This document shows positions 1,663-62,739 of a stretch of 64,000 bases of DNA, one piece after another. The DNA is taken from the IMG/VR virus record IMGVR_UViG_3300046168_000024. One strand, 5' to 3'. Numbering within the stretch: position 1 is the stretch's first letter; each line of letters opens with the position of its first letter. A program made the translations under genes and the position numbers. The DNA comes from an uncultured virus (IMG/VR IMGVR_UViG_3300046168_000024). Its lineage: Duplodnaviria; Heunggongvirae; Uroviricota; Caudoviricetes. Under the pieces are notes generated by a model. That model saw only the letters and a program-made list of their open reading frames with translations. It did not search any database and had not been told where the DNA came from.

Positions 1663-2076
1663 TCAGACCTTGCTACCCTCAAAACCATTTGGGTATCGCT
1701 TTTCAAGTTTGTTTATATTTTCGTCCATTACTTCATCAGGTGTAAATCCAAGTGCGATACAACCTTGAACCCAATACCAAAGGACATCTCCTAGTTCTCT
1801 TTTCATGTGGAATATTTCATCAGCACTGAACTTACTATCTGATTGAAATACTTTTTTCTTTACTACTTCGGCAAACTCTCCACTTTCTGCCATCATACCT
1901 ATCAATGCGGTCATTAGTCTTGCCATATCTATTTCTTGGTCAATCACTTCACTACCTTGCATTGTATAAGTTCCTCGTAGATACTCTACTCTGTCACACA
2001 TTTTGGTCGTATCCTTACTTGCTCCAGAGGTAGTTGTGTCTACAAACTTTGCGTAGTCATTAATTTTACTTTCCAA
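1663..2076 (-). CDS. mazG: MazG-like nucleotide pyrophosphohydrolase
   Basis: GMMAESGEFAEVVKK, RELGDVLWY, ENINKLEKRYPNGF motifs; C-terminus probably frameshifted by an extra G. Confidence 0.85.
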   Translation of the reverse strand: MESKINDYAKFVDTTTSGASKDTTKMCDRVEYLRGTYTMQGSEVIDQEIDMARLMTALIGMMAESGEFAEVVKKKVFQSDSKFSADEIFHMKRELGDVLWYWVQGCIALGFTPDEVMDENINKLEKRYPNGFEGSKV

Positions 2077-2373
2077 TATCTTTTACCTCTTTTTTTGGTA
2101 TCACTTGGTATGCACCTTTGTTATAAGCAATTGATACCGTGTATTGCTTACTGATTTCTTTCTTATATGAAGTATCTTCAGGTGTTTGATACTCCTTCAC
2201 TTTTGCACTAGGATAGGTCGTTTGTTTACTACTTTTTTGTCGTTTTATTACTATTTATATCACTTTTAGTTGCTTTTTTGCCACTTATTAGTCACTTTTT
2301 TTAGTAGTTTTCCTCACTTTTTTTCCTTTTCTCTGCCATGTATATCATAACTCATGCTACCTTTAACTATCAT
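2065..2373 (-). pseudogene. disrupted (or error-containing) phage hypothetical gene
   Basis: Starts MIVKGSMSYDIHGR, later frame reads ...SIAYNKGAYQVIP; stops and frameshifts in the A-rich middle. Confidence 0.4.
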
Positions 2374-2575
2374 TTTTGTAATCCCCCATGTCTATGTTGT
2401 AGATTTCGCACAATCTGTTTAGCATTAGTTCATACTCTAGTGTTAATTCTACAATGTGTTCGTTAAGATGTTGCAAATCATCAAGGCACAACTTTATTTC
2501 ATCTTCATGCTTTTTCAGTTCTACCTTGATTTTATCCCCCTCTGTGACAGTAGGGAACTGTATAATTTTACCCAT
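2363..2575 (-). CDS. coiled-coil hypothetical protein
   Basis: MGKIIQFP N-terminus typical of phage small proteins; heptad pattern. Confidence 0.7.
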   Translation of the reverse strand: MGKIIQFPTVTEGDKIKVELKKHEDEIKLCLDDLQHLNEHIVELTLEYELMLNRLCEIYNIDMGDYKNDS

Positions 2576-3035
2576 TATTTAAAACCCCTCAAAAATGTGG
2601 TCTATCATTACTAGCACAAATGTGCCTATGATACAGAACACTATTAAGCAAGTGTATACTTCTACAAACCACTCACCCATAGTTATTATCGTCATCGTTG
2701 TTGCTAAAGTATATAAATACTAGAAACATAGCAACTAGAATTATTACTGTGTAATCCATTCAAATCCTCCTACTAATAACATTACTACTATCGCTCCGAT
2801 ACCGAAACCTATCAGTATCCACTCTGTTGGGTCGTCCTTGTCAAAGGGTTTCCATACTTCGTGATTGGCTTTCCCTCAATCCAACCATAACCTTTCCACT
2901 TATCTTTCATCAGCAAAGCCTCCTGTATATAAATCTACTAGGTATGACTCTATTAGATCGATGTAGTCTTGATAACTGTCATACTCTCCACTTATAGTAT
3001 CGTAAGCATACTTCATTGCTCTTAGCATATCCTCT

Positions 3036-3284
3036 TTAGGAATTTGAAAACGCATCTATGATGTGTCCATCATGGTCTTTGTCAAAGTTAGGGTAGTATG
3101 ATAATTCATTTTGCACTTCTTGTAGTTCTAAAACACCATAGATTATGCACTCATAGAACTCCTCTACTTTCTTCATAACTGTCCAAAGTGAGTGGGAATG
3201 AAAAAAGAGCAACCCATCGCTCTCATCTTGAACGGGTTGCTCTTTGTATTTGTCATTGAATAGTTTGTTTTTGATACTACTCAT
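3036..3284 (-). CDS. hypothetical protein
   Basis: 82 aa, GAGGAG RBS. Confidence 0.6.
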   Translation of the reverse strand: MSSIKNKLFNDKYKEQPVQDESDGLLFFHSHSLWTVMKKVEEFYECIIYGVLELQEVQNELSYYPNFDKDHDGHIIDAFSNS

Positions 3285-3451
3285 TAGGTTGCTCCTCTAC
3301 TTTTTGAAAGGTTGTGCCATCACAGTATCCTACCATTTTTCTTCTGTGTATCTCTTTACGAGCATACTTACCTTCAACACTCTGGTCGTTTTCCTAACTT
3401 AGACAATGCCCTTGTCAGTGAATTGCATATAATCGTGCCATAACTGTTTCA

Positions 3452-3637
3452 TTACTTCACTCCTTCGGATAATCTATCCAATTCGTCATAATCATACTCT
3501 TTGTTGATAATGATTTTTACTTTTCTTTTGTTTGCTCCTACCACTGTGTGGTCAAGAACTAAGCCATTTTTTGCTAGAGCATTTACTTTTCTTTTGAATG
3601 TTCCATACTCTTTTTGTGTCAATATTGCTGTTGTCAT
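3452..3637 (-). CDS. hypothetical protein
   Basis: 61 aa, co-directional, purine-rich RBS. Confidence 0.6.
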   Translation of the reverse strand: MTTAILTQKEYGTFKRKVNALAKNGLVLDHTVVGANKRKVKIIINKEYDYDELDRLSEGVK

Positions 3638-3767
3638 TTGCCTTGCCCCCTATATGCTTTATGTGAACGCTTCTTGTGTTTGTTCATGTTAATACTGAAT
3701 GTGCTTTTGTTGTTGCCTTGTGAAGTCTTTTTCACATGACTGATATGTCCTTTACTCCATGATGCCA

Positions 3768-3986
3768 TTACACACTCTCCTTAGTAGCCCATACCACTTT
3801 GATACCTCTACGGGTTAGTTCGTTCATACACTTTTGCACTACCTTTGGTTTCGCATTTGAACTATTGATGTAGTCAAATAACTCCTGCTTTGGTGTGTTG
3901 TGTATGAAATAATGTTTCATCTTTTGCTTTGCAGCAGGAATACCTCTTTTGTATTCTCTATGTGATTTCTTAAATTTCATTGGCAT
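3768..3986 (-). CDS. basic hypothetical protein
   Basis: AAGGAG RBS, first gene after promoter at 4035-4063. Confidence 0.7.
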   Translation of the reverse strand: MPMKFKKSHREYKRGIPAAKQKMKHYFIHNTPKQELFDYINSSNAKPKVVQKCMNELTRRGIKVVWATKESV

Positions 3987-4033
3987 AACGCACACTCCTT
4001 ATTTAATTTGGTTATTATTTTTTATATGAGTAT

Positions 4034-4062
4034 ATTATACTCGGTTTGAGAGGTCTTGTCAA
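4034..4062 (-). promoter_or_regulatory. sigma70-type early promoter
   Basis: TTGACA-17 bp-TATAAT on minus strand with A-rich upstream element. Confidence 0.85.
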
Positions 4063-4110
4063 GAACTATTTTTAAAAAGGTAGGAAATTTTGATGTTAAG
4101 TTTTTTGAAG

Positions 4111-4140
4111 GAAAAAGAAAGGGAGTATGAAACTCCCTTT
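4111..4140 (-). terminator. intrinsic terminator closing the large ncRNA
   Basis: AAAGGGAGT-TTCAT-ACTCCCTTT followed by CTTTTT on minus strand. Confidence 0.85.
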
Positions 4141-5067
4141 ACTAATACAAGTCGCAACGCGTGTGGGACAGGGGACACTATCAAAGAAGTTCCAATACTT
4201 GGTTGAATACTATGACTTTCACATGGTTATCCAACACCCCCCAAATCCCATTCTTGCCTTGCCATTTCAGTCTGTGCTAGGTCATTTTTACTTCGCTTGA
4301 CTACCGAATCGGTTGCAGAGGCGAGCATTAGTGGACAATTTGGTTATCTCATATACTATCTAGTTGTATCTGCCCCTCTTACCCTACTACAATCTCGGAT
4401 TTATTTACAGCTAACCTCAAACGATTGTGTGGGATATCCTCGCAGGATACGATGCAATCTCTCTCTAAATCAGATTGCTTACCCTTGAAACAACTGTGCT
4501 CACATTCCTTGGTGGGGTTGACAGCTAAAGCTGAATCTCGCCTCGCACACTGAGTTGTTAAAAGTGTTGGTTTGGTCGAGAACTCCAACAAACTCCTGAC
4601 TTTGATTAAGCTAGTGTCAGACTAACTAGGTTTGCTACTTGCTGTGTCGGTTTACACCTTTGGCTTTCATCTGATATTTTCGTTGTATCCACCCGTTCAA
4701 TCACGCTTATATCTATCTGTTTCACTTCTGATTGTATAAGAAAATCCCGAAGGTTTAAAGTCTTCCGACTAGCAAAAGCGAGTGTAGAACTTACTACTTA
4801 CCACCGACTGCCTTGCCTACTTGAATTTGGACTTATCGGACTTACTTTGGATTTACTGAATGTCTACCACTCTAACTCTCTTTACGCAGTGCCGTCCTGC
4901 GAACATAACTCGACTTTTCATGGTTGGTCACGATGCTTAGAAATATCTCTTATGTTGAGTATCAAACTTACACCGACTAGACACTTAGGACATGCTAGTT
5001 TGCCCCCCATCGTTCAAAGCAGTTGGGTCGCTGTATTTATTTACTTTTTGTTTTTTTTTCAAAATAT
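4112..5067 (-). ncRNA. putative large (~950 nt) structured non-coding RNA
   Basis: Own consensus promoter and terminator; more GC-rich than flanks; no RBS-led ORF; many stems with GNRA/UUCG loops. Confidence 0.7.
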
Positions 5068-5073
5068 AGATAT

Positions 5074-5102
5074 ATTATATCCACTTTCTAACCATTTGTC
5101 AA
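5074..5102 (-). promoter_or_regulatory. consensus sigma70 promoter driving the large ncRNA
   Basis: TTGACA (5102-5097), 17 bp, TATAAT (5079-5074). Confidence 0.85.
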
Positions 5103-5211
5103 GAAGAATTTTGATTTATTTACTACTTGGTTGGTAATAAATCAATTCAGTCCCAACGGGTGTGATACTTTCGTTTTCTCACTTGGTTTCCCTTTTTCTA
5201 AATATAAGTAT

Positions 5212-5240
5212 ATTATACTCACTCTAGAACCATTTGTCAA
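5212..5240 (-). promoter_or_regulatory. second tandem consensus promoter
   Basis: TTGACAAATGGTT...AGT..GTATAAT, near-duplicate of the 5074-5102 promoter. Confidence 0.8.
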
Positions 5241-5276
5241 CAAAAACTTTACATTATTTGTTGAAACTTCACTTAA

Positions 5277-5344
5277 GTCAAGGTGTTGGAGTTGAACCAA
5301 CCACTTCCTGAATAAGGCGTGCTTCCGCAGACACTTACCCTGAC
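5277..5344 (-). ncRNA. tRNA-like element with shrunken anticodon arm
   Basis: GTCAGGGT/ACCTTGAC acceptor-like stem, D-like arm, GTTGG-TTCAACT-CCAAC T-arm, only CCT-TATTC-AGG at the anticodon position. Confidence 0.55.
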
Positions 5345-5398
5345 TAGGCTCGTCGCCCTGACTTAAATGGGTTAGTATGGCTAACCACTCCTTGACAA

Positions 5399-5710
5399 TT
5401 ATTGTGAGATTGCGTCAACCAATCTTTGTAGGTCTTGCTTTCCAGCTTTGACAAAAGTAGGTAGTTCGATTCCGAAGTGCTCAGAAATAGTGTTTACTAG
5501 CTCACTCTTTTGAACTACAGGCTCGCCTGTTTTAGTTGTTCTAGGTTGTGCTTTGTAAACTCCTTCTCTTGATAACTTAGCAATGATACTTCTTGTAGTT
5601 TTGCCTAATTCTTGTGCAAGTGCGTCTACTGTTTCCCTTGAAGGGTTTTCTTGGTAGGCTTTAGTCATAGATGCTACCATTTCATCTGTATAATTTTTAG
5701 CGTTTGCCAT
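5399..5710 (-). CDS. T5 A2-like pre-early DNA-binding protein
   Basis: Start MANAKNYT after GGGAG RBS and a promoter at ~5751-5778; RSIIAKLSREGVYK resembles the T5 A2 SVRSKL...YQK segment. Confidence 0.7.
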   Translation of the reverse strand: MANAKNYTDEMVASMTKAYQENPSRETVDALAQELGKTTRSIIAKLSREGVYKAQPRTTKTGEPVVQKSELVNTISEHFGIELPTFVKAGKQDLQRLVDAISQ

Positions 5711-6047
5711 TTTAATAACTCCCATTATTTTTAATATCTTATATTGTATATTATATCCAAAGTATCCTCGTTTGTCAACCACTTTTTGTAAAAACTTTGA
5801 TTTTTGTGCATCAAGTGGAGTGTCTGTTGAGGTTTTATCTTTTTTCATAATATGTATATTATAGGCGATGTGATTAGTCATGTCAAGAAGAAATGCGAAT
5901 TATTTATAAAAATGCACATCGTTATTTCGGGGGCAGGGACGCGAAACCTCACAGCGGGTGTGCACAAATCTCCAAAAAACGCAAAATTTCTCTTGACACC
6001 CGCGCAAATCTGTGCTAAACTATAAATAAGTCTTATTATAGACTAAT

Positions 6048-6120
6048 ACATCACTTTGACACTCCGTTTTATCACTTTAGCACTTCGTTTATGCACTTCA
6101 GTTTTGCACTTTGGCGCCGG
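6048..6120. repeat. short CACT(T/C) repeats, cluster 1
   Basis: about six CACTT/CACTC units at 9-15 bp spacing ending in CACTTTGGCGC. Confidence 0.55.
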
Positions 6121-6240
6121 AGGTGGCTTTAAGCGGGTAAAGTGGCGTATTTATGCGGGTTTTGACGAAACAATCGATAATTAAAGTGGTTTTCACGAAA
6201 CAGACTAGCAATATAAAAAATTCTTCGATAAATGCGAAAA

Positions 6241-6280
6241 TTCTCTTGACACCCGCCTCAGAGTATGATAAAATCGGCGC
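6241..6280 (+). promoter_or_regulatory. rightward promoter of a repeated class
   Basis: TTCTCTTGACACCCGC (also at ~5988) and TATGATAAAATCGGCGC (also at 9073-9089). Confidence 0.65.
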
Positions 6281-6371
6281 GATTTGATGCACAGATTATG
6301 CGAAGTAAAATAATTGAATTATTTTCGCTTTACCTATTGATATTTCTAATAAAGTGCGTATAATACATATT

Positions 6372-6512
6372 ATGAAAAACGAAAAGAAAGTTGAAAAAAC
6401 AAAAGCAACATTAGTTCGTGAAGTGGAAGCTAAATTCAAAGTAAAAGATGGTTTCTTTGACTCTTTAGAGAGAGCTAACAAAGAAACAATTGTCAAATTA
6501 CTCTCCCTTTAA
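6372..6512 (+). CDS. 46-aa protein resembling the A2 C-terminal domain, probably leaderless
   Basis: MKNEKKVEKTKATLVREVEAKFKVKDGFFDSLERANKETIVKLLSL; TATAAT at 6359-6364 just before ATG, no RBS. Confidence 0.6.
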   Translation: MKNEKKVEKTKATLVREVEAKFKVKDGFFDSLERANKETIVKLLSL

Positions 6513-6600
6513 GTGAACAGTTGTCTAAAATTCGAAGTGTAAGTTACTTTGTTCCTCAAAACTAGGCAAAAGTCCCTATTGGCACGGGACTGAGCTCGCC

Positions 6601-6647
6601 AAACCCGACAAATGTCCCCGAGGAACGGACAGGCGTCGGGTTTTTTT
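6601..6647 (+). terminator. intrinsic terminator
   Basis: AAACCCGAC...GTCGGGTTT plus T-run, internal TGTCC/GGACA stem. Confidence 0.7.
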
Positions 6648-6732
6648 GTGAATTATTTTAAATTTTTCCCTTGACAAAAGTAAAAATGTGTGCTACAATA
6701 CTAGGGTGGCGGGCGGGATACCCACGGAGACT

Positions 6733-6752
6733 TGGGGATAACCTGTGGATAA
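6733..6752. promoter_or_regulatory. tandem DnaA boxes
   Basis: TGGGGATAA (1 mismatch) and perfect TGTGGATAA (reverse complement of TTATCCACA). Confidence 0.6.
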
Positions 6753-6770
6753 GTCGGCTTCGCCAAGGTA

Positions 6771-6858
6771 GACTTTGCACTTGTTTCGCTTTCGCACTCT
6801 GGCGCACAAGCGCTTCGCTTTACCACTTCACTTTTTCACTCTGGCGCAGAGCGCACTG
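6771..6858. repeat. short CACT/CGCTT repeats, cluster 2
   Basis: CACTCTGGCGCA twice, TTCGCTTT twice, further CACTT units. Confidence 0.55.
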
Positions 6859-6909
6859 ATGCAGTTCTCTAAATCTCAGGCAGGGGGTATCCCTCAAAAT
6901 TAATTGACG

Positions 6910-7188
6910 AAAAAAAGAGTGAGGGTGGGAAATCTTGAATAATCGCAATTTCCCAATCCTCAGAAGGTGGTCTTTGTTAATCCGAAAATTAGCATTTTTT
7001 CCTTCTTTTTGAAAAGTGGCAGTTATCTTGAAAGTTCGTAGAAGTTCGGTTGATGTTTTCCCTTCTCGGTTCTATCTAAGAAAATCTGATCTTTTCTCAT
7101 TTTCCCCAAGTTCTCGATCTTGCGATAAAGTCTTGGTGTCAATCCCCTATTTTCTGTTTTCCCTTTAAGGTGTGTTTCCTTAGTTGAT
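6910..7188 (-). ncRNA. putative ~280-nt structured RNA
   Basis: TTGACA-16-TATAAT promoter at 7222-7195, consecutive hairpins, terminal stem plus T-run; only 25-aa and 11-aa mini-ORFs. Confidence 0.4.
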
Positions 7189-7364
7189 ATAATCATTATA
7201 AGGATTTTCTGTCCTATGTCAACAATTATTTTAAATTAATTTAATAAATTCACAATAATAAAAATCTGTAATACTAATACAATTAGAGGTATTACAGTTC
7301 TTATAAGTTCCATAATGTGATTATACTTATCAAGCCACCTTTCAAATCTATAAATTTTGTTCAT

Positions 7365-7400
7365 AAAAAAAGGGAGTAAGTTTATTGGACTTACTCCCTT
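7365..7400 (-). terminator. intrinsic terminator after HAD gene
   Basis: AAGGGAGTAAGT-CCAATAA-ACTTACTCCCTT-TTTTT. Confidence 0.85.
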
Positions 7401-7413
7401 AGGTTGTTAGAAA

Positions 7414-7929
7414 CTAAGCAAATCGCTTGTTCCATATTCTCGCATTAACTGTTTCAACATTTCCATATTTTCGGATAGCAGTTAAATTTGCTGTCCTATC
7501 ATCATAGAAATATTTCTTTAGTTTTGCGAATTGCTTGAAATTCCAAAAGTGTCGCAGTTGCTTTGCTTTTAGAATATCATCTCTAGTAATGTTATCCTTA
7601 GGTCTTGAATAAATATAATCATAGTAAATACCCATTGAATGAATATATTCCAAATCATATTCTCCAAGTTCTCTAGCTGTGCAAATTATGACAATGTTTC
7701 CATTTTCATAATCTTGTCTTAACTGCCAATACATAGGAAGTAAATCATCTTTAAAAATGTTTTCCTTAGTATTGTTAGCTTTCCAATTAGCCAAGTCTAG
7801 TTCCCCATTTTCCATATATTTTGTTCGGTGGCTACTATCAATGATAGTTCCATCTAAATCATATATGCAAATTTTCGGATTAACAAAGTTTAGAATTCTA
7901 GGTATAAATTGAGTTTTAAGTTTCAACAT
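7414..7929 (-). CDS. HAD-superfamily phosphatase (possible T5 Dmp analogue)
   Basis: YDLDGT motif I, CTAR motif II, K, YDDR motif IV; pre-early position. Confidence 0.8.
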   Translation of the reverse strand: MLKLKTQFIPRILNFVNPKICIYDLDGTIIDSSHRTKYMENGELDLANWKANNTKENIFKDDLLPMYWQLRQDYENGNIVIICTARELGEYDLEYIHSMGIYYDYIYSRPKDNITRDDILKAKQLRHFWNFKQFAKLKKYFYDDRTANLTAIRKYGNVETVNARIWNKRFA

Positions 7930-8083
7930 CTTTTAAACCCTCTTTAATTTTCTGCTTTGCTCTTTGTTCCATATGTCGCCAAGCTCTATCATATGATTTT
8001 GCTTTTAGCCATTCTTCCCTAGTTGCAAAGCCGAATTTTTCCCATTCTTCTTTTTTAGTTTCAAATAAATCAAGTTGTTTCAT
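7916..8083 (-). CDS. 55-aa hypothetical protein
   Basis: MKQLDLFETKKEEWEKFGF..., GAGGT RBS. Confidence 0.6.
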   Translation of the reverse strand: MKQLDLFETKKEEWEKFGFATREEWLKAKSYDRAWRHMEQRAKQKIKEGLKDVET

Positions 8084-8462
8084 TCTTACCTCTTTTCTTT
8101 ATTTGTTTATTAACGATTTTGTATGCTTGTAAAATACAAGATTTAATCTGATTTCCAGAACAGTAAAACCATTCTGTATAACCAAGACCTAAATTCTTGT
8201 CATTTACTTTTTCATACCCTCGCAAAATAGCAATTTCAGTTGCTATCCTTTCAATGCTTTTTGCAAGTATATTTTCGGATATAAAAACCTTTTTTATAAG
8301 GTGTTCTTGTCCTTTCAAATTTCCTGACATTCTGAAACCTGAAATTCTTCTATCTATATCCTTAGTAGTATAGCCCACCTTAGACCTAATTCTTTTGTTT
8401 TGATACAACTGATTTAGGTCTAGTTCAAGGGCATAAACTTTATCTTGAAGATTTAAATTCAT
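8070..8462 (-). CDS. T5orf172/GIY-YIG-like domain protein
   Basis: KVGYTTKDIDRRI...E...GYTEWF pattern. Confidence 0.7.
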   Translation of the reverse strand: MNLNLQDKVYALELDLNQLYQNKRIRSKVGYTTKDIDRRISGFRMSGNLKGQEHLIKKVFISENILAKSIERIATEIAILRGYEKVNDKNLGLGYTEWFYCSGNQIKSCILQAYKIVNKQIKKRGKNETT

Positions 8463-8650
8463 GCTCTATCTTTTAAAGGTGTTTTAGTTTCAATATTCCA
8501 ATTCATTACCAATGCGACTAGATCAGATTTATTCGATCTGTCAAATGCAGTAAATGGAGTTAAACCCTCATTCATAAGAAATTCATTGATTTCTCTTTGC
8601 ATTGTCGCCTTTGGTAAATTCTCAAAATAAACTATTTTTTCTTTAGCCAT
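8459..8650 (-). CDS. 63-aa protein with A2 C-terminal-like motif
   Basis: GAGGT RBS; KATMQREI...FDRSNKSDLVAL resembles 6372..6512. Confidence 0.7.
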   Translation of the reverse strand: MAKEKIVYFENLPKATMQREINEFLMNEGLTPFTAFDRSNKSDLVALVMNWNIETKTPLKDRA

Positions 8651-8849
8651 TTTATTACCTCGTTTATTAACTACCTACATCTTATAGGGTGTAGATTTCC
8701 CTAGTTCTTTTATGTCGTTCTTGTTTTCATAACCGAAGTTAAGATTGTCTCCACGACCCCGACCAATATTTTATAAGGCGTTCTCGGTAATCCTTATATC
8801 TATAATATCAAAGTGATTGAAAAAATCAAGCAAAATCACAGTGATTTTT

Positions 8850-9175
8850 TCCTTGACTTTTCCCTAAATATAGTGTAAAAAAATATGAAAAAAAGTGTTG
8901 CTTTTTTCTTGAAATTGTGGTAGGAAAATTTGAAAAAAAGTGTTGCAAAAAATTCAATCATGGTTTAAAATAACTGTAAGTTATTTTAAACCAAGCCTCC
9001 CAAATCCACCAAGACAAGCCGATAAAATCAATCGATCTTTTTTCGAAAAAAACCTTGACAAATCTTGACAGATATGATAAAATCGGCGCCCCAAATGAGA
9101 ATGATTATCATTTACAATATTAAAAATAATTGTAGAAAAGTGTTGACAAGTATTGAATAATGCTTATAATAATAG
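8850..9175 (+). promoter_or_regulatory. stack of rightward sigma70-like promoters with A-tracts
   Basis: repeated AAAAGTGTTG(C/A) -35 contexts at ~8892, ~8936, ~9136; TTGACA-17-TAAAAT at 9055-9083. Confidence 0.65.
9093..9113. promoter_or_regulatory. Fur-box-like palindrome
   Basis: AAATGAGAATGATTATCATTT; one mismatch to the 7-1-7 TGATAATnATTATCA consensus. Confidence 0.55.
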
Positions 9176-10608: not shown

Positions 10609-10794
10609 ATGATATATAGCACATATGTAGACGGCAATAGAAAAGCCGATGTTATCAAATTAGACAATCACTGGGGTTGTCGATTATACGAAGATGGAAA
10701 ACTTATAACAACAGAGTTTTACAAAGGGCATAGTGAAGCATACGCAGAAGATGCAGCAGAGAACTATGTACTAGGAATAAAAAATGCCGTATAG
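10609..10794 (+). CDS. hypothetical protein
   Basis: AGGAG RBS; YAEDAAENYVLG C-terminus. Confidence 0.7.
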   Translation: MIYSTYVDGNRKADVIKLDNHWGCRLYEDGKLITTEFYKGHSEAYAEDAAENYVLGIKNAV

Positions 10795-11227
10795 CAAAGA
10801 AGTAAATGATAGATTCTACGGAGTACTGAATAATCCACAGGAGTTCAGTGTAGGACGCTTCGACCCAAAAGACCCAGACGTAGCAACTGGCATGACTGGA
10901 GCACCCGCTTGTGGTGACGTCATGAAGTTACAATTAAAACTTGACCACGATGAAAAGATACTAGATGTCAAGTTCAAGACATATGGATGCGGTAGTGCAA
11001 TTGCCTCGTCCACCCTGTTCGTAGATATGCTGAAAGGCAAAACTATCGAACAAGCCAAACAAATAAAAGATAGAGATATCGCTGAGGCATTACAGTTGCC
11101 TCCTATTAAATTACACTGTTCTGTTCTAGCCGAAGATTCTATTAAGAAAGCAATAGAAAATTGGGAGGAAAAAATTGAACATAGGAAACATAATCAATAC
11201 GATTCATCGCTTGATGAAATCGGGTAG
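10784..11227 (+). CDS. iscU: Fe-S cluster scaffold IscU
   Basis: GAPACGDVMKLQ, FKTYGCGSAIASS, LPPIKLHCSVLAED. Confidence 0.95.
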   Translation: MPYSKEVNDRFYGVLNNPQEFSVGRFDPKDPDVATGMTGAPACGDVMKLQLKLDHDEKILDVKFKTYGCGSAIASSTLFVDMLKGKTIEQAKQIKDRDIAEALQLPPIKLHCSVLAEDSIKKAIENWEEKIEHRKHNQYDSSLDEIG

Positions 11228-11239
11228 GATTCATAAAGT

Positions 11240-11617
11240 ATGGAAAATCAGTGGATTGAAATAACAGATGAAGCAATCACCAAGATTTTGGAGAAACAGG
11301 AAACAGAACGTTTCCTGGCAATCCGTCTTGGTATTACTGGTGGCGGCTGTGCTGGTTTTGAATATGTATTTGATAAATGCAACGATGAACCAACTCAAGA
11401 AGACGTGCGATTGGATTATGGAAAGTTTGGGGTGGTAATTAATAAGATGTCAATTCCATACTTACTAGGAATGACACTAGACTACCAAAAAGAAGGATTG
11501 AACGAAGTATTTAAATTTATCAATCCAAAAGAACAATCCGCGTGTGGATGTGGCGTCTCAATCAATTTCGATTTAGAACAAGTAAATAAAGACAAAATAT
11601 TAGCAATACAACTATAA
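11240..11617 (+). CDS. iscA: Fe-S cluster carrier IscA/HesB
   Basis: GGCAGFEY and NP....CGCG.S motifs. Confidence 0.9.
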   Translation: MENQWIEITDEAITKILEKQETERFLAIRLGITGGGCAGFEYVFDKCNDEPTQEDVRLDYGKFGVVINKMSIPYLLGMTLDYQKEGLNEVFKFINPKEQSACGCGVSINFDLEQVNKDKILAIQL

Positions 11618-11919
11618 TGGAAGAATATACAATATTTAATTTTATAAGTGATGTAGGAGCCCCTATAGCCGCAGCGTTATTTATGGGTGCTTTCATATTT
11701 ATCATTATAAGAAAGATAATGGAAGATGTAGTTGGCAATACTGAAGAGTTAAAAGGTATCTGCAAAATGTTGGTTACTAGAATTAAAGTAATGAACAATG
11801 ACATGATACGAATAGATGTAAGCGTTAGTTCTGCACTTGAACTTACACCAGATTTAAAAAGAATATCAAGAGCAGAAAATTTTGTAGAAGATGGCACTAT
11901 AGATGCAAGGAGAGACTAA
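11617..11919 (+). CDS. single-TM membrane protein, paralog A
   Basis: N-terminal TM (VGAPIAAALF), MNNDMIR motif. Confidence 0.75.
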   Translation: MEEYTIFNFISDVGAPIAAALFMGAFIFIIIRKIMEDVVGNTEELKGICKMLVTRIKVMNNDMIRIDVSVSSALELTPDLKRISRAENFVEDGTIDARRD

Positions 11920-12083
11920 TGCAAAACTGGTTGTTTAATAAAATGGCACCTTATGCGTTAAAGTTTAGAGAATGGTCTAAAGGTAAACTCTGGATTCAAA
12001 TACCACTATGGATTTTAATATTATGGATGTTAGGAATATTTAATCCTTACTGGTGCGTATATCCAGTCTGTTGGATTCAATAA
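11919..12083 (+). CDS. 54-aa Trp-rich membrane peptide
   Basis: MQNWLFNKMAPY...WCVYPVCWIQ; AGGAG RBS, TAATG coupling on both sides. Confidence 0.65.
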   Translation: MQNWLFNKMAPYALKFREWSKGKLWIQIPLWILILWMLGIFNPYWCVYPVCWIQ

Positions 12084-12343
12084 TGGATTGGATGGAAGAT
12101 GCTGCAGAAGCAGTTCAACAGTTCGGATTCCCTATAATAGCTATGCTCGGTCTTGGATACTTTGTCTATTTTGTTTGGACTACAATCACGGAAAAAATCG
12201 ACCCAGCAACTGAAGATATGAAAATGACCGTTCTAAAGTTAATAGACCAAATTAGAATGATGGACAATGATATGATTCGCTTGCAAGAGAAACTGGACAC
12301 AGTTTTACAGATGAAAGAAAATGAACGAAAGAAAACTAAATAA
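12083..12343 (+). CDS. single-TM membrane protein, paralog B (holin-like)
   Basis: QFGFPIIAML TM, MDNDMIR motif, coiled-coil tail. Confidence 0.7.
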   Translation: MDWMEDAAEAVQQFGFPIIAMLGLGYFVYFVWTTITEKIDPATEDMKMTVLKLIDQIRMMDNDMIRLQEKLDTVLQMKENERKKTK

Positions 12344-12857
12344 TAGAATTTCGAACGGTGTAGTTGGAACATTAATAGCTTTAAGCTTTATAGTAATTGC
12401 ATCAGACTTAAATGCTACAGAAATAGTACATAAATTTGGTTCGCCTAGTTTTAGTGGGATTAATCAATCTGCACACTATTTAACTATTGACGAACAAGAA
12501 AGAACAAGAAAAGATGCACTTGCACAAAAAGCTCAAGATGCATTAGACGAGGCCCAAAGAGAAGCAGACAATACAACTCTCGCTAAATTCTTAAGAAACC
12601 TAGAAAGCAGAATTTATTCTACACTTGCAAAGGATATATCAGAATCTTTATTTGATTATAACAATCCTGGCACACTAGAGAATCCTGTAACTGGAGAAAT
12701 CTGGTTAGAAGGCAACAGAATAATTTGGACAAATAACGGAGTCACAATCACTCTAGTAGTTGAAGAATGGTTAGATGGAGTGTTGTTATCAACAACAACT
12801 ATCGAAATACCAGTCGGAAGCTTCGGGGGATGTTTTAGTGACTGCGCGACTGGCTAA
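12321..12857 (+). CDS. csgF: curli assembly factor CsgF-like
   Basis: signal peptide then EIVHKFGSPSFSG...HYL.I, F..NLESRIY, TTTIEIP. Confidence 0.8.
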   Translation: MNERKLNNRISNGVVGTLIALSFIVIASDLNATEIVHKFGSPSFSGINQSAHYLTIDEQERTRKDALAQKAQDALDEAQREADNTTLAKFLRNLESRIYSTLAKDISESLFDYNNPGTLENPVTGEIWLEGNRIIWTNNGVTITLVVEEWLDGVLLSTTTIEIPVGSFGGCFSDCATG

Positions 12858-13734
12858 TGTATTAGCGCCTTTACTACTTGTCGGCTGTGCTTCATTTGGA
12901 GCACCGCAACAATATGACAACTGTTATAAATTCGAAGAAGGATTTAATAAAGATGTTGTAACAGGAATTGCAAAAGCAGGCACAGATAGAATGATATGTA
13001 GGACAGGACCTGTCATACAGCCTAGCGCTACTCAACAATTACTCAATTTACCATACCCCAACCAAAAGACAGTTGTAGCAGTATACAACTTTGGAGATAA
13101 CTCGGGTCAAAGAAAAGGTGGAGACAATATAGCTAGTTTTAGTACTGCTGTAACCCAGGGAGCTCACCATATTTTGATTGAAGCTTTGAGGGACGCAGGT
13201 AGAGGAAATTGGTTTGTAGTCGTAGAGAGAACTGGACTTGATGCTTTGACAAAAGAAAGACAACTTGTAAGAAGTACTTTTGAAGCATACAATAAAGGGG
13301 CAGATGGAAAAACAATTTTAAAACCACTACTATATGCAGGAATGATTATAGAAGGTGGTATAGTTAGTTATGATACTAACATAAGAACTGGTGGTAACGG
13401 TGCTCGATATCTAGGAATAGGTATGAAGAATCAATATCGTGAGGATGTCGTTACAGTAACATTAAGAGCTGTATTAGTTCAAACAGGGGAGGTCTTGTTA
13501 AATGTTACAACCACAAAAACTATACTATCTACTGGAGGTGGAGGCGATGTATTCAGGTTTATAGAACTTGGGACAGAACTCGTTGAAATCGAAAGTGGTA
13601 GTACAGAGAACGAGCCAGTAGGACAAGCTGTAAGAGCTGCTATAGAAGCAGCTGTATATGGCCTAGTTGTCCAGGGACTCGAAAAAGAGGTTTGGGACTT
13701 CGACTACCCAAGCCTGGGAGAAAAGAATGAATAA
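12838..13734 (+). CDS. csgG: curli secretion channel CsgG lipoprotein
   Basis: lipobox LVGC; VAVYNF.D.SGQRK, FSTAVTQG, WFVVVER.GL..L.KERQ, GG.GARYLGIG, QYRED; GTG start after GGGGGA. Confidence 0.92.
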   Translation: MTARLANVLAPLLLVGCASFGAPQQYDNCYKFEEGFNKDVVTGIAKAGTDRMICRTGPVIQPSATQQLLNLPYPNQKTVVAVYNFGDNSGQRKGGDNIASFSTAVTQGAHHILIEALRDAGRGNWFVVVERTGLDALTKERQLVRSTFEAYNKGADGKTILKPLLYAGMIIEGGIVSYDTNIRTGGNGARYLGIGMKNQYREDVVTVTLRAVLVQTGEVLLNVTTTKTILSTGGGGDVFRFIELGTELVEIESGSTENEPVGQAVRAAIEAAVYGLVVQGLEKEVWDFDYPSLGEKNE

Positions 13735-14404
13735 GATAATTGGACTATTCGCGATTGTTCTATCTTTTTCAGCGTTCGCGGGTAATAATGATTTATATAT
13801 TACTCAAACAGGTACAGGACTTACTTTGACTATTGACCAAATAGGTGCTACTAACAATGTTGGTACATCTCAAAATAGAGCAACTTTGTCAGGTACTTCA
13901 ATGACAGTAGACATAGACCAGATTGGAGATACTAACTCCTTCTTGGCTTCACTACTTCAAGGCAACTCATCTAGTTGGACTTACAAAGTCACTGGTGATA
14001 GTAACACCGCTACTTTAGCAGGTGGAGCTTCAGGAGATATTGCTAGTTCCGATTTTGACTATATCACGATTGGTGACAGTAATACTCTTTCATGGACTCA
14101 GGGTGCTGCTTCGACAGCTACTGGAGCCAACACCGACTTTGCTATAACAGGAACTTCAAATGCCGTAACAGGTACTTGTGAAGTTGTGGGTTGTATAAAT
14201 AATTGGACTATTAGTGGAAACAGTAATAGTATTACTACATTACAGACAGGTTCTGCTGACCATCAAATCACAGCATCTTTAACTGGAAGTTCTAATACTG
14301 TAACTATTGACCAAACTGATACTGCAAGTACGAACGTTGCAAACATAGTATCTACCACGTCAAGTGGTACTATTGATGTAGATCAATGCGCATCTGGCTG
14401 TTAA
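13727..14404 (+). CDS. curlin-repeat secreted protein 1 (CsgA/B-like)
   Basis: signal peptide; repeated xxQxGxxN / GxSN beta-arc units. Confidence 0.75.
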   Translation: MNKIIGLFAIVLSFSAFAGNNDLYITQTGTGLTLTIDQIGATNNVGTSQNRATLSGTSMTVDIDQIGDTNSFLASLLQGNSSSWTYKVTGDSNTATLAGGASGDIASSDFDYITIGDSNTLSWTQGAASTATGANTDFAITGTSNAVTGTCEVVGCINNWTISGNSNSITTLQTGSADHQITASLTGSSNTVTIDQTDTASTNVANIVSTTSSGTIDVDQCASGC

Positions 14405-15486
14405 TACTTCTCAGTATACCGGCCTTTTCAACAGAAATAGGAGAGATATCTGAGCTAAAAGGAAACGGAGAGATTACTAGAGTAAACTCTAGTGAAACTT
14501 TTACCGCAGAACTAGACTCAGATATCTTTTCATTCGATGATGTAAGAACCGGAAACGGTAGACTTGCAATAGAGTTCTTAGATGACTCTGTAGTTAAATT
14601 GACAGAACACTCGAAATTAATTATAGATGAATATATCTTTGACCCAGACCCAAGTAAGAGTAAAATGTCTCTTCAAATGGCATCTGGAACAGCTCGATTT
14701 ATTTCGGGCGCTTTTGGAAAAATTAATAAAGAAAACATAACTATTAATACTCCAACAGCAACTATCGGTATTCGTGGTACAGACTTTACAACAACTGTAG
14801 ACGAATTAGGCAGAAGCTTAGTTATACTACTACCTGATAAAAATGGAGATTCATCAGGAGAGATAACAGTAACAACTGCAGCAGGAGTAGAGATACTCAA
14901 TGAGCCTTTTCAGGCTACTATGGTTTCAGCATGGGAACAACCACCCACACAAGCTGTTACTCTAGCAAACATGACACTTGGACTAATTGATAATATGTTG
15001 ATAGTTCAAAGACCAGACGAAGTCGAACAAGCAGTAGAAGAACAACAAGCAGGAACTTCACCTACCGCAGATTTAGATAAAGACTTTTTCGAAGATGCAC
15101 CAGACTTAAATTGTGATGCTCTAGTAGAGGAATGTGACGAAGAAAATGATGAAGTTACAAGACTAGACATTGACTTATTAAGTGTAGAGTTTCTCGTAGA
15201 TTTACTGGCACTAGTGGAGACTACTAGTAAAAAGAGAAACCAGACTTCAGAACTAAATGGAGTAGAACTCGAAGGTATCATTGCAGGCTTTGACCCAATA
15301 TACCAAACATACACTTTCGTGGAAGAAGGAATGATTTATTTTGTACACGAAGGACAGAACAACTACGATATAGGTATCGATATAAATGCAGGTACTTATT
15401 TATACATAAACAACGCAGGAGTAATATTGGAGGTAAATATAAATGGTGCGGGTGATAACGTTATTATTATTAATCAGTCCCCTTAG
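14386..15486 (+). CDS. FecR-domain secreted protein
   Basis: signal peptide; D.VRTG.G...I.F.DDS...L.E.S.L.I and INTPTATIGIRGTDF. Confidence 0.8.
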   Translation: MRIWLLILLSIPAFSTEIGEISELKGNGEITRVNSSETFTAELDSDIFSFDDVRTGNGRLAIEFLDDSVVKLTEHSKLIIDEYIFDPDPSKSKMSLQMASGTARFISGAFGKINKENITINTPTATIGIRGTDFTTTVDELGRSLVILLPDKNGDSSGEITVTTAAGVEILNEPFQATMVSAWEQPPTQAVTLANMTLGLIDNMLIVQRPDEVEQAVEEQQAGTSPTADLDKDFFEDAPDLNCDALVEECDEENDEVTRLDIDLLSVEFLVDLLALVETTSKKRNQTSELNGVELEGIIAGFDPIYQTYTFVEEGMIYFVHEGQNNYDIGIDINAGTYLYINNAGVILEVNINGAGDNVIIINQSP

Positions 15487-16237
15487 TTTTGCTGGGGATA
15501 ATGAAGTTTCAATTATAACTAAAGGAACTAATAATCAAATTACTACTAAGCAAATTGGTAATGGTAATACTACTAATATTCTTTGTGGTGCAAACTCAAG
15601 TGGTTCTGTGCCCGGTAGTAACTATACCTCTCATTCTTGCACTAATGCCGTATGGAATGTCAGTGTTGACGGAAACAGTAATAGTGTTAGAATGTATACT
15701 GTATGGTCAAACAATATAGGAAATGAAAGCACCATAACTATAGAGGGTAATGATAACTACGCATATATTGACCAAGACGAAGATGATAATACTGTAACTA
15801 TTACTCAAACAGGAAACAGTAATCACGCAGAAGCATTAGGCTCAGGAGATGACAATGTTTACTCAACAACTCAAACAGGAAATAATAAGTATAGCAAAAT
15901 ATTCTTTTTCGGGGATGATTCTGATATCACTGTTAATCAGTATGGTACTGGCACACACAATTCTTATATCTATGGAAATGGTATTGCGCACAATAACTCG
16001 GTAAATGTCATTCAATATGGCAGCGGTAATAAGGATGCAGACATATTCTTTTATAGTGCTGATAATGATGTAGATTTAACACAATACGGAACAGGAGCTC
16101 ATGTAGCAAATATGAAGTTTTATACAACAGACTACAATGTAGATGTTACTCAACTAGGGTCTACGAATCAAACATACACAGCTACATTTAATTGCACTCA
16201 AAACTGCACAAAAACTATAAGTATAACCCAACAATGA
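15443..16237 (+). CDS. curlin-repeat secreted protein 2
   Basis: signal peptide; ~23-aa repeats N.V.I.Q.G..N/H. Confidence 0.75.
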   Translation: MVRVITLLLLISPLSFAGDNEVSIITKGTNNQITTKQIGNGNTTNILCGANSSGSVPGSNYTSHSCTNAVWNVSVDGNSNSVRMYTVWSNNIGNESTITIEGNDNYAYIDQDEDDNTVTITQTGNSNHAEALGSGDDNVYSTTQTGNNKYSKIFFFGDDSDITVNQYGTGTHNSYIYGNGIAHNNSVNVIQYGSGNKDADIFFYSADNDVDLTQYGTGAHVANMKFYTTDYNVDVTQLGSTNQTYTATFNCTQNCTKTISITQQ

Positions 16238-16734
16238 AAAGAGATAAAATTAGAGACAGTATAGAACTTACTACTTTAATAAGTATATTTCTATTTTCAG
16301 TACTAGCACTAACCCCTAATGTAAACGCCTACGAATTACCAGACACTCCTTTTGATTTTGAACAAATGAAGGCAGACGCAGAACTAATCAAACAATCAGA
16401 TAAACCTTTATTCGACCTCAAAATTGAAGAACCAGTTTCAACTGTTCAGTGGGTTACATTCGGAACATTACAAATTGCAGACATCTATACCACATACCGT
16501 GGACTTAAATATAATTGTGTTAGAGAAGTAAATCCAATTGCTGGAGAAAGACCATCAGTACCAAAGATGTTCTTTATTAAAACAGCAGTTCTTTCCCCGG
16601 CAATCTATGCGGAACGACAAACACTAACACTAAAACCAAAAACTATGGATGAAATAAATTTTCTAATGGCAATAGTTGTAAATCATAATTACAAAGTATG
16701 GCATAAAGCAGAACAAAGATGTATCAAAAGATAA
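16234..16734 (+). CDS. secreted/membrane hypothetical protein
   Basis: hydrophobic N-terminus; ADIYTT..GL...E.NP motif; ATGA coupling. Confidence 0.65.
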   Translation: MKRDKIRDSIELTTLISIFLFSVLALTPNVNAYELPDTPFDFEQMKADAELIKQSDKPLFDLKIEEPVSTVQWVTFGTLQIADIYTTYRGLKYNCVREVNPIAGERPSVPKMFFIKTAVLSPAIYAERQTLTLKPKTMDEINFLMAIVVNHNYKVWHKAEQRCIKR

Positions 16735-18503
16735 TCACAATAGTACTATTTATGGGATTGCTTATCTGGAATCCATACCCTTTTCAAGTTTTAGAACTAA
16801 AAACCTTTGATTGGTTTATAATGAATACTGAGCCTGTACAAAATGACAATATTGTAATAGTAGACTTAGACGAAGAATTTATAAAAGATTACAAAGGTTG
16901 GCCACTACCTAGAACAGCTTTCGCAGACTTAATAGCAACAACAAGAGCTGTATCAGGAATAACAGTGCTTATGCCTAATCCCGATATTCGTAATACTGGA
17001 AATGACGAAGTATTGGCACTAAGAATGAATTATACACCAACAGTCCTTGCTAGTGCAGCATCGACACAAGTAACTGGCACTAACCCTCATGTAGGTACTG
17101 CCCAGTTAGGAGAGGACCCATTACCATGGCTATATCAATACCCAGGAATTTTACCTACAGAATCTATGCTGGCGTCAAAGGCAAAGGGACTAGGAGTAGT
17201 AACCGCTACACCGGAAATAGACGGGGTTACTCGTCGTATTCCCCTAGTCGTAAACGTAGGGTCAAAATTATACCCAAGCTTCGGACTAGAACTCTTAAGA
17301 GTAGGAACAGGCGATATAAGTTACCAAATAAAAACAGAAGAACAGGGTTTAGCTTGGGTTAGAGTCCCAACTTATCCTGTAATGAATACAGATGCAAATG
17401 GACGTATCTGGTTAAACTGGAACACAAAATTTTACAAACAAACAGCGAAGGAATATCTTAGTAATCCAATTCAAGCTCCCTTCGTTATATTCGGCACGAC
17501 TGCAGAGGGTGTAACAAACCCTGTGCCGACCCCTGCGGGGGCTAAGTATCCTCATGAGATACAAGCAAACATTTTACACAACCTTATTCAAGGTACAGCA
17601 CCTAGTTCACCTACTTGGGCTTCTGCAGCTGAGTATGGAATCGGACTACTTGCCCTCATCATTTTAGCACTAGCTACAAGGTCAGTTTGGTTATCGGTAC
17701 CGAGTTTAGTACTTGTTGTCGGTGGTTCTTCTTATGGAGCCTGGTATGCCTATCAATCTTCGTATCTCATAGACGCTAGTGGAATCGTAATTATCTGCGT
17801 TTTGTTTTGGGCATATCATTCGTTTCTGAGTTTCATATCCGAGTATCGTCAGAAACTTCGAATCAAACAACAATTCGGCACGTACGTTAGTCCCGACTTG
17901 GTTAAAAAACTCCAGGAAGACCCATCATTGCTGAGATTGGGTGGGTCAACAGAACAACTAACTTTTCTTTTCTCGGATATACGAGGATTTACCCCGATTT
18001 CTGAAAAATACCAAAAGAATCCGCAAGGACTTACTGTTCTGATTAATAGATTTTTAGACAATCAAACTAAGATAATTCTCAAACATGGGGGAACAATAGA
18101 CAAATATATGGGAGACTGCATCATGGCATTTTGGGGTGCTCCTCTTCCAGACGAAAACCATAAGCAAAATGCAACAGCTGCCTTGATAGAAATGAAAAAG
18201 GCATTGGAGGAATTAAATGAAAGATTCAGAGAAGAAGGCCTGGATACGATTAATACGGGCGCGGGCATCAACACCGGCCTCTGTGTCGTCGGAAACTTTG
18301 GAAGTAGCAGTAGGTTTGATTACAGTGTTCTTGGTGATAGCGTCAATCTGGCTGCTAGGTTAGAATCAAGTTGTAAGAATTACGATGTGGATAATGTCAT
18401 TTCTGAGCACAGCTTGGTTGATGGCTACGAGTACGACTTTCTTGACGAAGTAACTGTCAAAGGTAAGTCCGAACCTGTTAAAATCTACACCATACGAAAA
18501 TAG
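16719..18503 (+). CDS. CHASE2-domain class III adenylate cyclase
   Basis: CHASE2 (WPLPR, DGVTRR.PL), TM helices, FSDIRGFT, IDKYMGDCIMAFWG, DYSVLGDSVNLAARLE, VKGK. Confidence 0.92.
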   Translation: MYQKIITIVLFMGLLIWNPYPFQVLELKTFDWFIMNTEPVQNDNIVIVDLDEEFIKDYKGWPLPRTAFADLIATTRAVSGITVLMPNPDIRNTGNDEVLALRMNYTPTVLASAASTQVTGTNPHVGTAQLGEDPLPWLYQYPGILPTESMLASKAKGLGVVTATPEIDGVTRRIPLVVNVGSKLYPSFGLELLRVGTGDISYQIKTEEQGLAWVRVPTYPVMNTDANGRIWLNWNTKFYKQTAKEYLSNPIQAPFVIFGTTAEGVTNPVPTPAGAKYPHEIQANILHNLIQGTAPSSPTWASAAEYGIGLLALIILALATRSVWLSVPSLVLVVGGSSYGAWYAYQSSYLIDASGIVIICVLFWAYHSFLSFISEYRQKLRIKQQFGTYVSPDLVKKLQEDPSLLRLGGSTEQLTFLFSDIRGFTPISEKYQKNPQGLTVLINRFLDNQTKIILKHGGTIDKYMGDCIMAFWGAPLPDENHKQNATAALIEMKKALEELNERFREEGLDTINTGAGINTGLCVVGNFGSSSRFDYSVLGDSVNLAARLESSCKNYDVDNVISEHSLVDGYEYDFLDEVTVKGKSEPVKIYTIRK

Positions 18504-62525: not shown

Positions 62526-62739
62526 TCATCTTCTCCAGCTCTACATAACCTCCAATCTTCTCTCCATCCACAATAATCTGTGGAAATGTTCGAGCTGTCG
62601 GGAATAGTGTTTTTACATCTGTTGCTTGAAACTCTTCTCCCATCATGTTATAAATTACTTCGTGTCCTTTGTTCGTTGCTAAGTTCTTAGCTTTGACACA
62701 GTAAGGACAGTTTGGTATACTATATATTTCTACTATCAT
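62518..62739 (-). CDS. glutaredoxin
   Basis: CPYC, TFPQI, IGGY. Confidence 0.92.
   Translation of the reverse strand: MIVEIYSIPNCPYCVKAKNLATNKGHEVIYNMMGEEFQATDVKTLFPTARTFPQIIVDGEKIGGYVELEKMIG

Follow-up and report, generated by a model that had tools for sequence, protein, structure and literature searches.

To our knowledge, few bacterial or phage RNAs of great size and complexity have been recognised, among them the ribosomal RNAs, RNase P, group I and group II introns, OLE, GOLLD, ROOL and HEARO. The element described here lies in a 64,000-nucleotide (nt) stretch of DNA from an uncultured virus of the Caudoviricetes (IMG/VR record IMGVR_UViG_3300046168_000024), the whole of which is referred to below as the window. 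On its minus strand, positions 4112-5067 very probably constitute a stand-alone noncoding RNA (ncRNA) gene of about 920-950 nt, a member of an uncatalogued family of large, modular RNAs with multiple pseudoknots that is carried by uncultured marine T5-like phages. The described RNAs that invite comparison are GOLLD and ROOL, which, according to one report (PMC12286853), are phage and prophage RNAs of unknown function that are often found near transfer RNA (tRNA) islands and form RNA-only nanocages. The same report describes GOLLD as longer than 800 nt, with a conserved 3′ region, a variable 5′ region, a marine member (env-38) and a cage that is a closed, RNA-only 14-mer, and ROOL as an RNA of about 600-700 nt that contains multiple pseudoknots, reaches very high abundance and is non-essential (PMC12286853).

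Comparisons with these and other catalogued RNAs yield likeness in kind and no match in sequence or model. The sequence-only reading of the window had suggested either membership in GOLLD or ROOL or a new class of large phage RNA. When Rfam 15 (4227 families) was searched with the whole window, nothing reached a gathering score; at E ≤ 10 with relaxed filters, 2.5 kb and 1 kb of sequence returned nothing relevant, and at E ≤ 5 nine diverse relatives returned nothing save an upstream tRNA in one of them (L136). The covariance models of GOLLD (RF01998) and ROOL (RF03087) matched neither the window nor the nine relatives, which disposes of the first suggestion, and the Rfam models of RNase P RNA, transfer-messenger RNA (tmRNA), group I and group II introns, OLE and HEARO were likewise without a match, nor did ARAGORN call a tmRNA. 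A likeness of short motifs to RNase P, judged by eye (AAGUCC, ACAGA, GGUAAGAG and AACUCCACC), was dropped, the order of the motifs not being colinear and the RNase P model giving no match.

Like GOLLD, the RNA is phage-encoded, adjoins a tRNA or tRNA-like gene, is most invariant in its 3′ core and has a variable leader; unlike GOLLD, it has different conserved motifs, shows no similarity to the Rfam model and belongs to a family found only in uncultured marine T5-like contigs. With ROOL it shares a phage location near a tRNA-like element and the possession of two covarying pseudoknots, whereas ROOL is an RNA of the rumen and of Lactobacillales and the present one is oceanic, resides in a different type of phage and does not match the ROOL model. 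In both cases the likeness is one of resemblance only. OLE (about 600 nt) is also a large, ornate and highly conserved ncRNA, but as described in the literature it is encoded in the chromosome of Bacillota extremophiles and acts together with Oap proteins, and its model finds no match here. A 2023 survey (PMC10690425) reports about 8,500 short structured-RNA candidates, averaging 67 nt, from IMG/VR, the same data source, obtained by the same covariation-based approach; two motifs of the present RNA and the number of its nearest contig do not occur in six of the survey's supplementary files, while three further files may list fragments. Among GenBank phages (50,697 records) the region has no match, the most conserved 198 nt have none at E ≤ 1, and tblastn with the 160-amino-acid (aa) protein encoded next to the RNA has none either. 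Nor did literature searches turn up a description of this RNA. It represents a new class among the giant phage RNAs, themselves a known kind, and is a member of neither GOLLD nor ROOL.

The gene is framed by clear transcription signals. A perfect sigma-70 promoter (TTGACA-17-TATAAT) lies at 5102-5074 on the minus strand, and a second, tandem copy, also with 12 of 12 matches, lies upstream at 5240-5212; from the proximal one, the RNA would start near 5067. At the other end is an intrinsic terminator (4112-4140, minus strand) with a stem at 4118-4140 of nine pairs, a loop of five and a T-rich tail whose U-tract runs to about 4112. Promoter-like sites are abundant in this part of the genome (42 in 2000-8000, against 18.4 ± 4.1 in shuffled sequence). 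A further perfect promoter, at 4062-4034, serves the next gene, a 75-aa open reading frame (ORF) at 3995-3768. G+C content is 0.39-0.43 across 4051-5100 and 0.32-0.35 in the adjoining bins. In all these respects, two promoters, a clean terminator and a G+C-rich interval, the initial description holds.

Its further statement that the interval lacks an ORF is also borne out. The longest sense ORF is 70 aa and begins with TTG, and the opposite strand holds no ORF of at least 100 aa. In 34 family cores the median length of the longest stop-free run is 60 aa in the sense and 71 aa in the antisense direction, where shuffled sequences give a median of 58 and a 95th percentile of 95. None of the six frames stays open across members at the most conserved motif, with minima of 8-22 codons. 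No reading frame is conserved among the homologues, as would be expected of a protein-coding gene or even of a decayed one.

The family itself was assembled by several routes. Flanking proteins led to 81 related viral loci, and nhmmer searches with the body of the interval returned diverged homologues in which short, near-invariant blocks alternate with variable stretches, the insertions and deletions between blocks not being multiples of three. Scans for exact motifs gave 37, 21 and 19 stretches from viruses and 51 from metagenomes, the latter including some of TARA Oceans. Two covariance models were used, R1 for the 5′ domain (79 positions) and R2 for the 3′ core (93 positions), which score the window at 53.3 and 87.6 bits. 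R1 gave 27 matches in 92 viral sources (24 distinct rows) and R2 gave 19 in the same sources, and among the 51 metagenome loci they matched 34 and 50, respectively; some loci share a contig, so these counts are not counts of independent phages. The nearest record, an IMG/VR contig (G001), is 100% identical over the region and hence useless for covariation.

Both domains always occur on one strand, in 34 distinct cores of 461-863 nt, and the conserved core runs for roughly 600 nt from the 5′ pseudoknot domain to the almost invariant 3′ domain. Upstream of domain 1, at a distance of 97-220 nt, 29 of 31 members have a promoter with no more than one mismatch; for the other two, less than 160 nt of upstream sequence is available. 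Twenty-four of the 31 have a further promoter of this kind 107-509 nt beyond the 3′ core. Each member therefore forms a separate transcription unit, about 0.75-1.5 kb in length. Some domains can be missing entirely: the S-domain, the stem described below that bears a cassette at its tip, is absent from L192, L199, L205 and L216, the nearest relatives of the 5′ half of the RNA in the window.

One exact-match clue was set aside. A 17-mer of the 3′ core occurs in 30 stretches of the genome collection, where nhmmer gave only 11-12 bits, at the motif itself, in five. The same 17-nt motif is exact in about ten metagenome-assembled genomes (MAGs) of Halieaceae-type marine gammaproteobacteria (L141-L170), in a conserved gene that is apparently protein-coding because its variation falls at every third position. 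There being no further similarity to the RNA, the match is treated as chance, and it gives no pointer to the host.

Gathering homologues and looking for covariation, the check proposed at the outset, thus produced a diverged family whose helices are kept by compensatory changes. Judged from these alignments, covariation supports at least ten helices, two of them pseudoknots. All coordinates that follow refer to the minus strand. An A/T-rich and poorly conserved 5′ leader (5037-5067) precedes the conserved body, which opens with a leader hairpin recognised by eye, CCCAAC...GAUGGG (5006-5027). This hairpin shows compensatory change, reading CCCUAC/GUAGGG in L205 and CCCAAC/GUUGGG in L216.

Domain 1 (4880-4971), defined by the R1 model together with covariation, is a compact double-hairpin pseudoknot. 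Its helices are P1a (4957-4961 with 4944-4949), P1b (4940-4943 with 4916-4919) and P1c (4897-4901 with 4885-4889), and the 7-nt loop of P1a (4950-4956) pairs with a downstream 7-mer (4902-4908) to form the pseudoknot PK1. In the 27-sequence alignment of this domain, 91.8% of cells are paired, compared with 73.6 ± 1.2% in shuffles (0 of 500 reach the observed value) and 33-48% when the partners are slid, and both sides change in 15 of 20 pairs. All seven pairs of PK1 show compensatory changes, and this pseudoknot was absent from the model behind the alignment. On an earlier alignment (A1) PK1 was only 30% paired because its register differs by one column in the window's lineage, a shift seen in the window, L097 and L138; on alignment A2 the discrepancy is resolved.

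Domain 2 (4673-4770) is marked by conserved single-stranded blocks, AAACAG and GUGAUUGA. It contains two hairpins recognised by eye, P2x (4759-4770) and P2z (4673-4689), a helix P2y (4749-4752 with 4725-4728) with compensatory changes at four of four pairs, and a second pseudoknot, PK2 (4735-4740 with 4706-4711). PK2 was examined by swapping partners among lineages: with their own partner the sequences form a Watson-Crick helix of mean length 5.14 base pairs (bp), at least 5 bp in 12 of 14, whereas with partners from other lineages the mean is 3.0 bp and 6.9% reach 5 bp. A register-free version of the test (5.5 vs 5.0) does not discriminate. RNAalifold recovered only P2y and one short, doubtful helix in the middle 215 nt, an automated all-pairs search for helices in the nhmmer alignment yielded mostly spurious G-U helices, and a global MAFFT alignment of 43 extracts, at 3311 columns, was unusable.

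Next in order is a variable hairpin, CUGAC/GUCAG (4595-4621), seen by eye, whose place is taken in relatives by CUAAGC/GCUUAG and CAAGUC/GACUUG. It is followed by a hairpin with an invariant 14-nt loop (4566-4589), the stem of which is GUUGG/CCAAC here and GUAGG/CCUAC or GCUAG/CUAGC in relatives; the loop motif occurs in 21 of the 34 cores at four mismatches or fewer. The S-domain (4489-4559) combines conserved internal loops with a cassette, M1 (4517-4541), at its tip, and its helices S1 (4554-4559 with 4489-4494) and S2 (4545-4549 with 4495-4499) covary. On a plain MAFFT alignment, one not fitted to structure, S1 and S2 are 97.0% paired against 79.6% in shuffles and 29-40% with slid partners, and their covariation score is 0.528 against 0.185. 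G-U pairs are frequent, occupying, for example, 9 of 12 rows as GU and 9 of 12 as UG in the S-domain alignment, which establishes the minus strand as the sense strand of the RNA.

Toward the 3′ end, hairpin H3a (GCAAUCU/AGAUUGC, 4454-4478) has a loop whose 3′ half is conserved and a stem supported by covariation: in 13 members CG, GC, UA and AU occur at one pair and AU, GC and UA at another. The 3′ core (4363-4467, R2 model) is the most invariant part, with 48 invariant columns in 13 members. Its closing stem joins CUGC (4442-4445) to GCAG (4370-4373) and carries a covarying extension in which successive pairs are UA/CG/UG, AU/UA and AU/UA/GU. Within the core lie a variable hairpin, H3c (4389-4428), invariant purine-rich internal loops that include an 8-nt palindrome, GGAUAUCC, and a CCCAC segment that pairs with GU(A)GGG. 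The 3′ tail (4141-4362) is conserved within the window's own subgroup: nhmmer gives 92-109 bits over most of it for L195, L199, L200, L205, L216, L229 and L230, and a block is shared with L091, L094 and L128.

Several stems first picked out by inspection correspond to helices with covariation support, namely CGCAG/CTGCG, AACAACT..GTGC/GCAC.AGTTGTT, GCAATCT/AGATTGC and CTTATA/TATAAG, the last of these as the pseudoknot PK2. CTGAC/GTCAG and AGTC-GGAA-GACT are upheld by eye only. Three others give way to different pairings: in place of CC-TTCG-GG, CUUC pairs with a downstream GAAG; the bases of TATCC/GGATA covary with the strand after GCAG; and ACGATG/CATCGT suffers an uncompensated change in L192, its bases being used by the conserved leader hairpin. 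CAAACT/AGTTTG, ACTAG/CTAGT, GGT-GTAA-ACC and GTTGGATA/TATTCAAC stand as candidate stems of the initial reading.

The modularity of the family is most apparent in its cassettes. M1 is a hairpin with an invariant asymmetric internal loop and a covarying stem that takes the forms CAGC/GCUG, CAUC/GAUG, CAGG/CCUG and CAGU/ACUG. Of the 34 cores, 20 carry it, at relative positions that range between 0.18 and 0.93; it replaces the tip of the 3′-core hairpin in some members and lies near the 5′ end in others. A second cassette, M4, is found in 10 of 34 cores at positions 0.52-0.91. The reverse complement of M1 (4518-4537) starts with TTGACA, the −35 consensus, and no −10 hexamer stands at the right spacing in the window, so that the hexamer is probably a coincidence.

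M1 also occurs outside the family as defined by its two domains. In L060 (2077-3109), which shares its contig with L036 and L115, the place of the RNA between the counterparts of the 160-aa and 75-aa genes is taken by another unit, about 970 nt from one promoter to the next and free of ORFs, that has only the S-domain/M1 module (95% identity over 63 nt) in common with the RNA of the window. Other M1-bearing loci, such as L083-L087, L092 and L096, are likewise devoid of domain 1 and the 3′ core. Together these loci suggest a wider mosaic superfamily of large RNAs.

The stretch is present in 20 sequencing runs from 14 studies, all of them marine, seawater or viral metagenomes, and six of these are RNA runs from four marine studies. 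One run per study was mapped on positions 2000-9000 of the window, as assembled contigs only, and contigs from all four studies cover the interval, as a check of RNA-library coverage had been meant to establish. In X18 a 922-nt contig corresponds to 4116-5036 and nothing else, at a depth of 59 where adjoining bins have 0-7, and its end at 4116 falls inside the U-tract of the terminator. X20 contains a 734-nt contig (4305-5036), and X15, an oligo-dT library, one of 1193 nt (4144-5340). In X19 the summed depth of contigs on the RNA is in the thousands, compared with 2-60 for contigs of the flanking genes. In two studies the contigs end at 5036, the point at which conserved sequence sets in after the A-rich leader. 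Separately, five metagenome contigs that carry both RNA domains (L192, L196, L214, L216 and L232) are 1039-1175 nt long, near the size of the RNA, and may be transcript assemblies. With discrete contigs in RNA libraries, covariation across the family and no conserved ORF, the earlier alternative of a new class of large phage RNA is the one that stands. That the RNA would be expressed early, as was also proposed, is suggested by two features, the sigma-70 consensus of its promoter and the position of the gene.

What such an RNA might do can be approached from its architecture and setting. Action in trans is suggested because the terminator and the fresh promoters separate the RNA from its neighbours, and because its conservation is strongest in internal loops and pseudoknots, not in long single strands capable of antisense pairing. 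Host RNA polymerase would transcribe the RNA soon after DNA entry, and the product, through its folded shape, could bind a macromolecule of the host or the phage. The likeliest area would be tRNA and translation, or defence systems that target RNA, because the gene adjoins a tRNA or tRNA-like gene in a dispensable tRNA-type region. The RNA may also work as a homo-oligomer, like the unrelated phage RNAs GOLLD and ROOL.

Overall, an ncRNA of this family that acts in trans as a scaffold or decoy is the explanation we regard as best and moderately probable. By analogy with the cage-forming RNAs, its more specific form is put forward tentatively: a stable and very abundant scaffold or decoy, perhaps an oligomer, that acts in trans on a macromolecule of the host or the phage. 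The palindrome GGAUAUCC and the movable cassettes could, speculatively, be contact sites. A bolder proposal, which we consider rather unlikely, is that this RNA is the founding member of a third class of giant phage RNA, carried by T5-like phages across the ocean, that forms RNA-only or RNA-scaffolded assemblies, in which the invariant core would dock the exchangeable cassettes M1 and M4 for contacts between molecules or with partners and GGAUAUCC would serve as a dimerisation site, with the assembly acting early to capture or protect tRNAs or translation factors or to act as a decoy for RNA-targeting defences.

A number of observations weigh against a structured, trans-acting RNA, or at least temper it. 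The minimum free energy of the minus strand is ordinary (z-score +0.64, with 14 of 20 shuffles folding equally well or better), that of the plus strand has a z-score of −1.63, and folding energy is therefore uninformative. The initial description of the RNA as highly structured cannot rest on thermodynamics; it stands on the comparative evidence. That evidence in turn comes from phylogenetically related sequences, with alignments A2 and A6 fitted to models. The stems of the 3′ core that are invariant never vary, so that covariation neither supports nor contradicts them, and a long-range helix, P3, proposed by eye, failed a crude register-free test (6.5 bp vs 6.1 bp in shuffles). The RNA is accessory: R1 matches one of five related large contigs, and both of those rated 100% complete lack it. 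As to the library data, assembled contigs show neither strand, true ends nor timing, their depth is no basis for ranking genes, and the RNA runs were chosen for containing the stretch. The stop at 5036 common to two studies, seen when the RNA runs only are compared, is a weak hint of a processed 5′ end or an assembly limit. Finally, the case for a scaffold or decoy is made by excluding other modes and by analogy.

Of the other ways to account for the locus, catalysis deserves the closest look. The invariant purine-rich loops and pseudoknots could be the catalytic core of a ribozyme that processes, for example, itself or the neighbouring tRNA-like transcript: the 48 invariant columns of the 3′ core and the two pseudoknots would fit such a role, modular peripheral elements recall those of large ribozymes, a tRNA or tRNA-like gene is at hand, and the contig ends at 5036 could mark processing. 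Yet RNase P, the group I and group II introns and every other ribozyme family are unmatched at E ≤ 10, and no conserved cleavage-site signature was identified. Moreover, PMC12286853 indicates that GOLLD, ROOL and OLE are comparably conserved without known catalysis. A ribozyme is accordingly judged improbable. It is still harder to credit that the RNA is a highly diverged GOLLD or ROOL beyond the reach of narrow Rfam models, even though it is phage-encoded, lies beside a tRNA and has a length of 0.8-1 kb, and even though GOLLD, too, combines a conserved 3′ with a variable 5′ region and has a marine member in env-38 (PMC12286853), for the searches carried to E = 10 with relaxed filters for the window and to E = 5 for nine diverse members found neither.

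The two remaining possibilities deny the RNA an independent role or deny the importance of RNA altogether. A transcript that acts in cis or is translated, whether a long leader, an antisense regulator or the messenger of a small peptide, would accord with the presence of short ORFs and with capture in oligo-dT libraries. We think it very doubtful: neither an ORF nor a frame is conserved, the terminator and the perfect promoter at 4062-4034 separate the RNA from the next gene, the whole contig in one run is the RNA stretch alone, and the opposite strand has no ORF of at least 100 aa. Least credible is an element that works as DNA, such as a replication origin, a packaging site or arrays of protein-binding sites. 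Conserved blocks with variable spacing could be binding sites, and the reverse complement of M1 begins with TTGACA; against this, the compensatory changes, among them many G-U pairs, are specific to one strand and are what RNA helices would show, and the unit is framed by a promoter and a terminator whose bounds the RNA-library contigs match.

The phage that carries the RNA is, as its proteins indicate, a distant relative of T5. Pfam and PHROG scans identify a terminase, a portal, a protease-capsid fusion, T5-type tail proteins (T5_p143), T5orf172, ribonucleotide reductase and MazG, and the large terminase shares 48-49% identity with its counterparts in Pectobacterium phage My1, Yersinia phage phiR2-01 and other phages of 100-122 kb, which we take to be T5-like. 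Just upstream of the promoters of the RNA, on the same strand, positions 5277-5362 form a tRNA-like element whose acceptor stem has 7 bp and whose T arm is canonical, with a long hairpin in the place of normal D and anticodon arms. With this aberrant middle it matches the Rfam tRNA-Sec model weakly (20.9 bits), has a fold z-score of −2.33 and is not called by ARAGORN, which reports no tRNA or tmRNA genes in the window. At the same position relatives have a tRNA-Glu (L004 and L014) or an Rfam tRNA above threshold (L136, 31.5 bits). An RNA-library contig of X19 ends at 5363, the 5′ edge of the tRNA-like element.

Other features of the neighbourhood were recorded in passing. A second promoter-to-terminator unit of about 290 nt (approximately 6890-7195, minus strand) lies downstream of a perfect promoter at 7222-7195; it contains only tiny ORFs of 25 and 11 aa, and X19 contigs reach a depth of 3851 in the bin 6914-7147. 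Its homologues are confined to near-identical contigs, which give no basis for judging either structure or coding. Arrays of short repeats containing AAGTG (6070-6135 and 6790-6850) occupy a GC-rich region that is poor in ORFs and lies between divergent promoters; they may represent iterons for protein binding or part of something like an origin. Farther along, on the plus strand, positions 10784-18503 encode an unusual set of auxiliary proteins: NifU-like and IscA-like proteins of iron-sulphur cluster assembly, curli secretion and assembly proteins (CsgF, CsgG and a curlin-repeat protein), a FecR-domain protein and a CHASE2-adenylate/guanylate cyclase. A cytochrome c gene lies at 62736-63170.

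Each of the known giant RNAs has repaid study, and the present family, missing from Rfam 15 and from 50,697 GenBank phage records yet represented in marine samples of 14 studies, offers a new target for structure determination. It is a natural example of the shuffling of cassettes in RNA architecture, and it could serve to test whether cage-like or oligomeric giant RNAs are a general strategy of phages. It may also provide a handle on the role of the dispensable tRNA regions in oceanic T5-like phages.

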